From the sequence record NC_054913.1: 64,000 nt of DNA. One strand, 5' to 3'. Positions within the stretch are counted from its first letter, which is position 1, and each line of letters starts with the position of its first letter. The notes under the pieces were generated by a model. It was not told the DNA's origin. It worked only from the letters and a program-made list of their open reading frames with translations, and made no database searches. Shown in pieces: positions 3,022 through 4,211 of this stretch. The DNA comes from Escherichia phage F2. Made by a program: the position numbers and the translations under genes.

Positions 3022-3270
3022 ATGATTAAACAATTACAACACGCTCTTGAACTGCAACGAAACGCATGGAATAACGGTCACGAAAACTACGGTGCGTCAA
3101 TTGATGTTGAAGCCGAAGCACTGGAAATCCTGCGATATTTCAAACATCTGAATCCTGCTCAGGCTACTCTGGCTTCTGAACTGGAAGCTAAAGATGAATT
3201 GAAATATGCTAAGCCTCTGGCTTCTGCAGCACGCAAAGCAGTTCGTCATTTTGTTATTACCCTGAAGTAA
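3022..3270 (+). CDS. hypothetical protein (82 aa)
   Basis: ORF in the hyperplastic 30.x region; no motif recognised. Confidence 0.45.
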   Translation: MIKQLQHALELQRNAWNNGHENYGASIDVEAEALEILRYFKHLNPAQATLASELEAKDELKYAKPLASAARKAVRHFVITLK

Positions 3271-3292
3271 GTTAAATCGAGGAGCCGTCGAA

Positions 3293-3484
3293 TTGTCTGA
3301 TTATCGATTTGCGAATCGGTATGTTTTAGAAGTACCGCCCCGACAATTTTACGGTGTACCTCTTGAATGTTACTATCATGCGTCAGAAAAGTGTTATCTG
3401 TGTAAGTCTTGGTGGTATGATGACGAGGTTTATGGTTATCCTGTCGTTAAATATCCAAAACCTATGTTCCCCTTGAGGGCTTGA
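3293..3484 (+). CDS. hypothetical Cys/Tyr-rich small protein
   Basis: 63-codon ORF with TTG start preceded by GAGGAG; weak. Confidence 0.3.
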   Translation: MSDYRFANRYVLEVPPRQFYGVPLECYYHASEKCYLCKSWWYDDEVYGYPVVKYPKPMFPLRA

Positions 3485-3532
3485 GCAGGCCATGTCAATA
3501 AGTCCTGCATTTTCATTTAAAGAGAATTTATA

Positions 3533-3712
3533 ATGGCAAAACAAGCTAAAGCAAAGAAAGCAGTTGAAAAGAAAGTTGATGGTACCTCTAAACGCGCTGG
3601 ATACAAGCGTGGGTCGAACTCTCGTATTAATCAAACAGTTGAGAAGATCATGCGCAGAGCACGTGCAGTTCTTCGAGATGATGCTTCTCGTTTTGGAAAG
3701 GTTGTTGCATAA
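3533..3712 (+). CDS. small highly basic protein (59 aa), not in the ORF track
   Basis: ATG at 3533; translation MAKQAKAKKAVEKKVDGTSKRAGYKRGSNSRINQTVEKIMRRARAVLRDDASRFGKVVA; followed by a terminator hairpin. Confidence 0.45.
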   Translation: MAKQAKAKKAVEKKVDGTSKRAGYKRGSNSRINQTVEKIMRRARAVLRDDASRFGKVVA

Positions 3713-3717
3713 TTTTA

Positions 3718-3740
3718 GGGAGACTTCGGTCTCCCTTTTG
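3718..3740 (+). terminator. rho-independent terminator hairpin
   Basis: GGGAGAC-TTCG-GTCTCCC followed by TTTTG. Confidence 0.6.
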
Positions 3741-3772
3741 TGCGTTTAGGGCAGAAAAAGTTTAAAAAAGAT

Positions 3773-3801
3773 GTTTACTCTCCTGTAGGATGTGTTACTA
3801 T
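3773..3801 (+). promoter_or_regulatory. T4-type early promoter
   Basis: GTTTAC at 3773-3778, 17-bp spacer, TACTAT at 3796-3801; downstream block shared with the other early promoters. Confidence 0.55.
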
Positions 3802-3842
3802 AGACTTGTACCACCTAATCAATAAAACAATCGGAGAATAAA

Positions 3843-4211
3843 ATGAAAATCAATCTGAACTCATACATCAAATGTAAAGACCACGACGGTTATAAAGCTA
3901 TCGAAATTAAAGAATTCCAGTGGATGTTATACAAAGAGCAATTTGAGTTCGTAGGTTGTATGACCCCTGAAGGTCCTTCAGATGATTTCTCTTGGAAAAT
4001 TGTGTTAGCAAACTTTTTCACAGGTGACACATACGAATTAAAAACTATTATTACCGGTAAAATTCGTTCAGAAACATATGTTGACGAAGAAACTGGTTAC
4101 TCTGAAGATGTTACATGGTATCAAAATGGACGCATTACAGCAGATAACCTGATCGAAAAAATGAAAGCCAAAGGTGTTTTAAATTTAGACAATTGGATTA
4201 AAGTTGCATAA
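3843..4211 (+). CDS. hypothetical protein (ORFan, 122 aa)
   Basis: ORF with RBS GGAGAATAAAATG and its own early promoter. Confidence 0.55.
   Translation: MKINLNSYIKCKDHDGYKAIEIKEFQWMLYKEQFEFVGCMTPEGPSDDFSWKIVLANFFTGDTYELKTIITGKIRSETYVDEETGYSEDVTWYQNGRITADNLIEKMKAKGVLNLDNWIKVA

Follow-up and report, generated by a model that had tools for sequence, protein, structure and literature searches.

Gene 30.9 of an RB69/HX01-like Escherichia phage: a small, highly basic protein of the rIII region that is widely kept among T4-like phages

The best-described counterpart of the gene studied here is gene 30.9 of phage T4, found at positions 130364-130540 between rIII and 30.8, whose product (MAKQAKAKKAVEKKVGDSKRAGYKRGSNSRINQTVEKIMRRARAVLRDDASRFGKQKA; NP_049823, 58 aa) was first deposited as 'ORF D' or the '11.1 kDa protein in Gp30-rIII intergenic region' (UniProt P17310). 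The label gp30.9 is also used in T2 and PP01. In vivo expression of rIII and 30.9 was studied by Driukas and Nivinskas (2003; cited in PMC9409239). In time-resolved omics of T4, the transcript was classified as early, whereas the protein was given the class NA, i.e., not detected (PMC9697503 Table S2). This non-detection is expected, since complete tryptic digestion of gp30.9 leaves no peptide longer than 7 residues. Knock-down of T4 30.9 by CRISPRi-ART was scored as 'Not Fit' (score 0.04, p = 0.26), and the neighboring gene 31 scored 4.1 with p = 1e-9 (PMC11879866 supplement). Literature searches on gp30.9, P17310, NP_049823, and 'gene 30.9' retrieved no functional study, and a search for papers on ribosome profiling or start-site mapping in T4 was equally negative. 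As for RIII, the product of the gene immediately upstream, its documented partners are the holin T and the ribosomal protein S1, and it blocks the activation of RegB; early, middle, and late promoters have been reported for the gene (PMC9409239).

The window, that is, the whole stretch of 64,000 nucleotides of Escherichia phage F2 (NC_054913.1) that was analyzed, belongs to a Mosigvirus of the RB69/HX01 type. The 59-codon ORF that a previous sequence-only reading had picked out is exactly as described, with its ATG at 3533-3535 and its TAA at 3710-3712 on the + strand (translation MAKQAKAKKAVEKKVDGTSKRAGYKRGSNSRINQTVEKIMRRARAVLRDDASRFGKVVA), in a free frame closed upstream by the in-frame stops at 3482-3484 and 3518-3520. 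The reason given for its omission from the ORF track was also right: the 60-codon cutoff alone hid it, and it was listed only when the minimum was set below the default of 60 aa (25 was used). However, the claim of a missed gene does not hold, because this is gene 30.9, annotated in T4, T2, RB69, and the near-identical HX01. The gene is not new, since the exact protein, its family PHROG 1427, and the HX01 CDS were already on record, and the gene call as such adds nothing to T4 and RB69 annotations that have included 30.9 for more than twenty years.

The 701 nt around 30.9 match 762 phage records and share 99.9% identity with Escherichia phage HX01 (Mosigvirus), whose RefSeq record annotates the very same CDS as D299_gp257. 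The window protein is identical to the RB69/Mosigvirus Gp30.9 (AAP76119, Q8SBJ9_BPR69), a 59-aa sequence present without changes on 363 contigs, and matches PHROG 1427 along residues 1-57 (E = 2.4e-31). Its identity to T4 gp30.9 is ~91% (90-91%) from end to end. The genes of the window, RB69, and T4 share the location between rIII and 30.8, the downstream terminator, the start MAKQAKAKKAVEKK, and the length class; compared with the T4 protein, that of the window has one residue more (VDGT versus VGD) and a C terminus ending in KVVA instead of KQKA. Full-length similarity, gene position, and a core formed by the motif plus an amphipathic helix all place the protein in the gp30.9 family. Considering the ORF, the RB69 identity, PHROG 1427, the HX01 annotation, and the dN/dS values given below, we regard the CDS at 3533..3712 (+; 59 aa plus TAA) as very probably a genuine protein-coding orthologue of T4 gene 30.9.

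Upstream of 30.9 and on the same strand are cd (dCMP deaminase, 1628-2209), 31.1 (2199-2507), 31 (2565-2897), and the immediate neighbor rIII (3022..3270, +; PHROG 1457 lysis inhibition accessory protein, E = 2.6e-43), while 30.8 (3843-4211, same strand; Pfam Phage_30_8, E = 6.7e-44) follows downstream. The order cd-31.1-31-rIII-30.9-30.8/30.7 is also that of T4 and T2 and is kept in Tequatrovirus, Jiaodavirus, Gaprivervirus, Gelderlandvirus, Karamvirus, and Roskildevirus. Genes 31 and 30 flank the early/accessory block to which 30.9 belongs. Gene 31 (Cpn10) and rIII (Linr3) are also followed by a 30.9-like gene in a distant metagenomic relative, and another distant member adjoins DNA ligase, on the 3' side of the ligase gene; the genomic context of the further distant members was uninformative. 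Pseudomonas phage PspYZU05 codes for a 92-aa version directly 3' of gene 31 that lacks a neighboring rIII, and in Salmonella phage 7-11 (Grimontviridae) the 30.9-like gene is found amid tRNA genes and genes of the host-takeover type, such as a Srd-like one, with no adjoining rIII. RIII and gp30.9 are both small cytoplasmic proteins coded by same-strand neighbors with a common terminator, but their sequences are unrelated.

A terminator had been noticed directly after the ORF, and it is indeed there: the hairpin AGGGAGAC-UUCG-GUCUCCCU at 3717-3736, followed by UUUGUG, forms an intrinsic terminator (3717..3742, +) that begins five bases past the stop codon. A simple pattern scan overlooked it because its T-count rule was not satisfied. 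The 51 nt from 3700 to 3750, which contain it, fold with -19.2 kcal/mol (z = -4.9, with 0 of 200 shuffles as good). The hairpin with its UUCG-type loop is kept in relatives with different stems (GGGAGAC/GTCTCCC here, GGACTCC/GGAGTCC in T4) and is annotated as a terminator in Mineola and PhAPEC2. Since this strong terminator follows 30.9 and none was found in the gap between rIII and 30.9, the latter is most simply read as the last gene of the rIII unit.

The gap itself (3271..3532, +) comprises 262 nt, at once the leader of 30.9 and the 3' UTR of rIII, and can be considered non-coding because its alignment with T4 has single-base indels. A 63-aa ORF starting with TTG (3293..3484) was considered as a second gene and discarded; it has no PHROG or Pfam match, and T4, with ~91% nucleotide identity to the window across this ORF, has single-base indels inside it. 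Two small conserved hairpins were found in the gap, ATCGATT-TGCG-AATCGGT at 3303-3320, followed by a short T run and with two compensatory changes relative to T4 (AATGATT/AATCATT), and another at 3485-3508; compensatory changes in the stems of the gap hairpins were seen against T4 and UTK0003. Folding of the 262 nt showed no unusual stability (z = +0.6 and -0.7). A 45-nt stretch of the gap is present in the window and T2 and missing from T4.

A candidate early-type promoter, TTTACG-17-TACTAT (3348-3376), was identified in this gap by its likeness to the promoter of 30.8; it is present in the window and T2, and its -10 element is deleted in T4. The sequence that it resembles, GTTTAC-17-TACTAT (3773-3801), is similar to T4 early promoters and conserved ahead of 30.8/30.7, and a late-promoter consensus, TATAAATA, is located at 2899-2906, just 3' of gene 31 and upstream of rIII. 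The putative Shine-Dalgarno sequence of 30.9 is a weak AAGAGA (3520..3525, +) placed 7-8 nt before the ATG, in a start region, AAAGAGAATTTATAATG, that is also found in T4, T2, and, with another last spacer triplet, VR26; other genera have GGAAGA in place of AAGAGA. The Shine-Dalgarno of 30.8 contains GGAG, the cleavage motif of RegB (PMC9409239), whereas that of 30.9 does not.

ORF length by itself gives no support to the gene beyond chance, and its status rests on conservation: there are 115 ATG-ORFs of at least 59 aa in the real window, against ~35 in shuffled copies. Conservation was examined in relatives, in which a non-coding region would have refuted the gene according to the sequence-only reading. 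This refutation did not occur: tblastn found the protein in 1005 phage records, and it is intact in the nine sequences used for a selection analysis of orthologues from seven genera. All indels among the nine are in frame, pS (0.16-0.64) is far above pN (0.01-0.30), and dN/dS ranges from 0.04 to 0.61, mostly 0.2-0.5, which indicates purifying selection. In distant relatives, the amino acids of SKRAGYKRxSNxR are kept while their codons vary (TCT/AGT/TCC/TCA, CGC/CGT, GCT/GCC/GCA, and TAC/TAT); because the residues stay as synonymous codons change, the constraint on this motif acts on the protein. Because close relatives strongly conserve the nucleotides of the motif codons, an RNA element was considered there, but this was rejected since distant relatives use different codons. 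An Rfam scan of the 30.9 region returned only terminator-driven noise.

These data bear on a different view of the locus, in which the frame would have arisen by chance, would act at the RNA or DNA level, or would be part of a longer, upstream-extended product such as the 97-aa T4 'ORF D'. The AT-rich DNA of the window does yield ORFs of 59 aa frequently by chance, and T4 gp30.9 is among the proteins that were not seen in the proteome, but purifying selection, in-frame indels, and amino acids conserved across synonymous changes argue against a chance frame, and Rfam gave nothing above noise for a function as RNA. Longer products have been annotated, both in old and in some current records (97 aa for 'ORF D' and 68-102 aa in others). 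However, the start MAKQ is conserved among orthologues while the upstream extensions are mutually unrelated, the stops at 3482 and 3518 block any extension in the window, and curators chose 58-59 aa for T4, T2, and RB69. Taken together, this view is very improbable.

The product is very basic and rich in Lys and Arg, as had been stated from the sequence: 10 K and 8 R among 59 residues (30.5%) versus 5 D/E, with a pI of 11.35, a net charge of +12.5, and a mass of 6.56 kDa. It can be divided into three parts. The first, MAKQAKAKKAVEKKVDGT (codons 1-18, 3533..3586, +), is a Lys/Ala-rich low-complexity segment in the alignments that varies in both length and sequence, and for which neither AlphaFold2 model gives more than low confidence or any secondary structure. 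It is followed by the family-defining motif SKRAGYKRGSNSR (codons 19-31, 3587..3625, +), delimited from the alignment columns of 23 sequences. R21, Y24, K25, and R26 are invariant in these sequences, down to 32% identity, and S19, K20, A22, G23, S28, N29, R31, and R44 are nearly so. The third part, SRINQTVEKIMRRARAVLRDDASRF (codons 30-54, 3620..3694, +), is a predicted amphipathic basic helix ending in ...ARxxL, a feature of the family core. Beyond it, the extreme C terminus varies as freely as the Lys/Ala-rich tail at the other end.

Structure was predicted with AlphaFold2 from 24 close homologues and, separately, from 23 diverse ones. Both runs gave a single helix with pLDDT 73-87, spanning residues 30-54 in the first model but starting at residue 34 in the second (34-54), and both left residues 1-30 at low confidence and with little or no structure. 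The hydrophobic moment of the helix is 0.59, versus 0.26 for shuffled versions (p ~ 0.01). The gene is also mosaic, since Mineola, UTK0003, and KaAlpha, which belong to three genera, have identical 5' 80 nt, and behind this common 5' part there are two kinds of C-terminal halves, ...QTVEKIMRRARAVLRDDASRFGKPKA and ...PLADQLASRARKVLAHDAAFGNPRKKA.

Members of the family occur in T4-like phages that infect Escherichia, Shigella, Klebsiella, Enterobacter, Citrobacter, Salmonella, Yersinia, Serratia, Erwinia, Cronobacter, and Pectobacterium, and, according to an annotation note, in Aeromonas phage 25. Outside this group, a homologue is carried by an unrelated podovirus, Salmonella phage 7-11. Among 1.8 billion representative proteins, an exhaustive profile search matched only 17, including a handful of distant relatives of 55-92 aa; 14 of the 17 are small phage-type family proteins or longer frames that contain the 30.9 sequence, and the other three are two 20-residue fragments and a eukaryote-like repeat protein, P0069, which we took as spurious because of its low complexity. 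The spread over many hosts and to the podovirus suggests a target that Gammaproteobacteria share, more than a T4-specific virion or replication partner.

Comparisons with known families yielded little. Pfam and NCBIfam scans of the window protein and family members found nothing meaningful, and Pfam gave no ribosomal protein family for the gp30.9 family. A PDB sequence search with the single protein returned just a chance match to RBM45 (E = 1.1), and Foldseek found no PDB match for the AlphaFold2 model, which is essentially one helix. The 23-member profile, searched against all PDB chains including ribosomes, had no ribosomal match at E <= 10 and no match to an arginine-rich (ARM) protein. 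DNA-binding families (HU, H-NS, H1-like, MotB, and Ndd) showed no domain or homology in Pfam, NCBIfam, PDB, or Foldseek, nor did the RNA polymerase binders AsiA, RpbA, Alc, Srd, Mrh, gp33, and gp55 in Pfam and PDB.

A disordered polycationic half, an amphipathic helix, and a gene that is dispensable, widely kept, and horizontally mobile make up the profile of an accessory factor for host takeover. We propose that gp30.9 may be such a factor, non-essential and binding a polyanionic target. Contact would be made by two flexible basic segments, the Lys/Ala-rich tail and the invariant S-K-R-A-G-Y-K-R-x-S-N-x-R motif, with the Arg and Lys residues of the latter touching phosphates and Tyr24 stacking on a base. 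The C-terminal helix, through its conserved hydrophobic stripe, could bring two copies together or else dock on a partner, and the protein would become ordered upon binding its target. Knock-down gives no phenotype that would narrow down the role of such a factor.

Whether gp30.9 binds nucleic acid at all is, in our judgment, an evenly balanced question: charge alone is a weak argument, and neither homology nor a match to a DNA- or RNA-binding family was found in Pfam, NCBIfam, or PDB, by sequence or by fold. An RNA or ribosomal target is tentatively suggested, the lean to RNA coming from the link to the S1-binding RIII, while DNA or the nucleoid seems a rather unlikely target. Docking on a conserved host protein, e.g., as an anti-defense factor, might also be envisaged, as tentatively as RNA, and some altogether different activity is an outcome to which we give little weight.

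In the RNA-directed version of the proposal, gp30.9 would be a ribosome- or RNA-binding factor working with RIII, i.e., a ribosomal-protein-like peptide that tunes translation or mRNA fate, a possibility that we hold with caution. Its size, charge, and disordered motif with Gly, an aromatic residue, and basic residues resemble those of small ribosomal proteins that thread into rRNA. By analogy, bL34/bL35-type proteins are similar to gp30.9 in size and pI, although there is no homology, and ARM peptides such as lambda N may be likened to it for their short disordered Arg/Lys-rich segment with an aromatic residue. An ARM-type segment of this kind would order only upon binding RNA.

Genomic data fit this RNA-directed version as well. 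The gene is directly 3' of rIII with no strong terminator in between and the one at 3717-3742 in common, the adjacency is kept in the distant metagenomic relative, RIII binds S1 and blocks RegB activation (PMC9409239), and the Shine-Dalgarno of 30.9 is free of the GGAG RegB site present at 30.8. However, adjacency is not function, and PspYZU05 and 7-11 have 30.9 without a neighboring rIII; besides, the PDB profile search gave no ribosomal match. The most specific form of the idea, in which gp30.9 would be a ribosomal-protein-like RNA or ribosome binder acting with RIII and rIII-30.9 a two-gene module that reprograms translation and mRNA decay, is a long shot. If true, it would provide an identity for one of the T4-induced ribosome-associated polypeptides that were reported long ago and never assigned.

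Somewhat doubtful, but compatible with several features of the gene, is a role as a conditional anti-defense protein or inhibitor of a host protein, with SKRAGYKRxSNxR acting as a short linear motif that matters only in certain hosts. The gene is small and early, can be dispensed with in the laboratory host, and forms part of a hyperplastic accessory block; it has spread to an unrelated phage family, and its C-terminal halves are mosaic, as is common for arms-race genes. In addition, AlphaFold2 predicts the motif to be disordered in isolation. Against this, a PADLOC scan of four family members gave no match at E <= 1, a weak point given that the library consists of defense and not anti-defense proteins, and literature searches retrieved no report of escape mutants or of a trigger.

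The sequence-only reading had pointed instead to the small basic early proteins of T4-like phages that bind the nucleoid or polymerase. In this case, gp30.9 would modulate transcription or act on host DNA by coating or compacting it. The high basicity, the early T4 transcript, and the layout of a basic arm plus an amphipathic helix agree with this, and bacterial DNA binders that resemble histone H1 have tails of the AKxAKAKKA type. MotB, Ndd, Alc, and similar proteins are early, accessory, and positively charged too, a likeness by analogy only, since gp30.9 is far smaller, largely disordered, and has no similarity to them in sequence or fold. Searches of Pfam, NCBIfam, and PDB found no similarity to these or to any characterized family, so that charge is all that the idea draws on. 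Nothing distinguishes a DNA from an RNA target, and there is no knock-down phenotype; we consider a nucleoid- or polymerase-binding role rather improbable.

Finally, the C-terminal helix might mimic helix 124-149 of the host nucleoid-occlusion factor SlmA and disturb SlmA or FtsZ, but this is highly improbable. In its favor, the only PDB matches of the family profile, all sub-threshold, are SlmA chains (best E = 0.049, a local match of 26-28 residues), the pairwise alignment has 12 of 26 identical residues (46%; RINQTVEKIMRRARAVLRDDASRFGK side) and hhalign gives a probability of 38%, both with a full-length SlmA sequence verified only for the PDB fragment, and one family member gives a weak TetR_C_12 match. 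Against it, the match is not significant for a database search, involves a single amphipathic helix, and fades in distant members, gp30.9 is far too short for a TetR fold, and T4 has no known reason to target SlmA. It is most probably a chance resemblance between amphipathic helices.

As to the accessory factor that we propose, its gene lacks a laboratory phenotype even though ~1000 T4-like phages keep it and it has reached an unrelated family. An invariant motif of 13 residues in a protein of 59 is an easy experimental target, and the identification of a partner would show what a widespread phage accessory gene does, and might shed light on the role of the rIII-30.9 unit beyond lysis inhibition.

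A separate observation concerns the rIII-30.9 gap of the relatives, many of which have there a conserved element of ~135 nt that is absent from the window and from T4. The Mineola gap (368 nt), which contains it, matched 417 phage records by blastn, and most of the partial matches cover the element, with ~95% identity across genera. Rfam yielded no match to it, and it does not resemble T4 rnaC or rnaD. Its fold comprises six helices with 38 base pairs and 99.7% of cells paired, and includes ten compensatory pairs versus 2.4 +/- 1.2 in shuffles (0 of 500) and 0-1 in slid controls. The element, located outside the window, has the appearance of a structured RNA not yet catalogued, and it is more novel than the finding on 30.9 itself.

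A conserved element of ~135 nt is found in the gap between rIII and 30.9 in many T4-like phages, and it is missing in the F2 window and in T4. Outside the window, it was located in the Klebsiella phage Mineola (L005:1205-1345) and in seven other related loci (L006:1234-1374, L007:1208-1348, L019:297-437, L020:369-509, L021:412-552, L022:394-534, and L023:393-533). A blastn search with the Mineola gap (368 nt), element included, matched 417 records, and the element, with ~95% identity across genera, is what most of the partial matches span. Its predicted fold has 38 pairs in six helices, with paired cells at 99.7%, and compensatory changes were found in 10 pairs, compared to 2.4 in shuffles (0/500) and 0 to 1 in slid controls. 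Comparison with Rfam gave no match, and no similarity was detected to T4 rnaC or rnaD. The element is a candidate for an uncatalogued structured RNA. In some records, small CDSs are annotated over it.

In F2, most of the gap (window 3271-3532) is taken up by a 63-aa TTG-start ORF (3293-3484, plus strand) in the same frame as 30.9. The T4 sequence is ~91% identical to it at the nucleotide level but contains single-base indels, and no match to the ORF was found in PHROG or Pfam; therefore, this stretch is conserved as DNA and not as protein. Two hairpins were found on the plus strand of the gap. The first (3303-3320, ATCGATT-TGCG-AATCGGT), located 33 nt past the rIII stop and followed by ATGTTTT, has a T4 counterpart, AATGATT-TGCG-AATCATT, that differs by two compensatory changes, and it may act as a weak terminator or as a stabilizer of the 3' end of the rIII mRNA. 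The second (3485-3508, GCAGG-[14 nt]-CCTGC) precedes the start of 30.9 by ~25 nt and is followed by a T-rich stretch. Phage UTK0003 retains the loop TGTCAATAAG with the stem GAACTGG/CCAGTTC instead, and in other genera this site is occupied by a different stem-loop.

Two plus-strand sequences resemble T4 early promoters, both of the form (G)TTTAC-17-TACTAT, and neither was flagged by a sigma-70 scan. The one before 30.8 (3773-3801) has an A-rich stretch upstream and is conserved in relatives, whereas the one within the gap (3348-3376) is found in the window and T2, its -10 element being deleted in T4. An exact match to the T4 late-promoter consensus, TATAAATA, is located upstream of rIII on the plus strand (2899-2906), where it directly follows gene 31.

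Gene 30.9 itself (3533-3712) is a mosaic. Mineola, UTK0003, and KaAlpha (loci L005, L008, and L009), which represent three genera, share exactly the same first ~80 nt of the gene, and the 3' halves fall into two sequence types, a combination that suggests recombination inside the conserved motif region of the gene. The C-terminal helix of gp30.9 shows a local likeness (residues 31 to 56, window 3623-3700, plus strand) to helix 124-149 of the Escherichia coli nucleoid-occlusion factor SlmA, with 12 of 26 residues identical and an hhalign probability of 38%, both against an approximate full-length SlmA sequence. The family profile matched SlmA in the PDB with an E value of 0.049. The likeness is probably due to chance.

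In several deposited genomes, the 30.9 protein (58 to 73 aa) is named "1,4-alpha-glucan (glycogen) branching enzyme, GH-13-type" (for example, in records OR352946, OR525701, MN994497, OK275722, and LR597657, all matched by window 3533-3712), obviously a propagated misannotation. In the RefSeq record of HX01, four ORFs of 20 to 26 aa are annotated around 30.9 (L001 1737-2115, equivalent to window 3436-3814), and these look like overannotation: two are within the gene, one per strand, and the remaining two, both on the minus strand, flank it.
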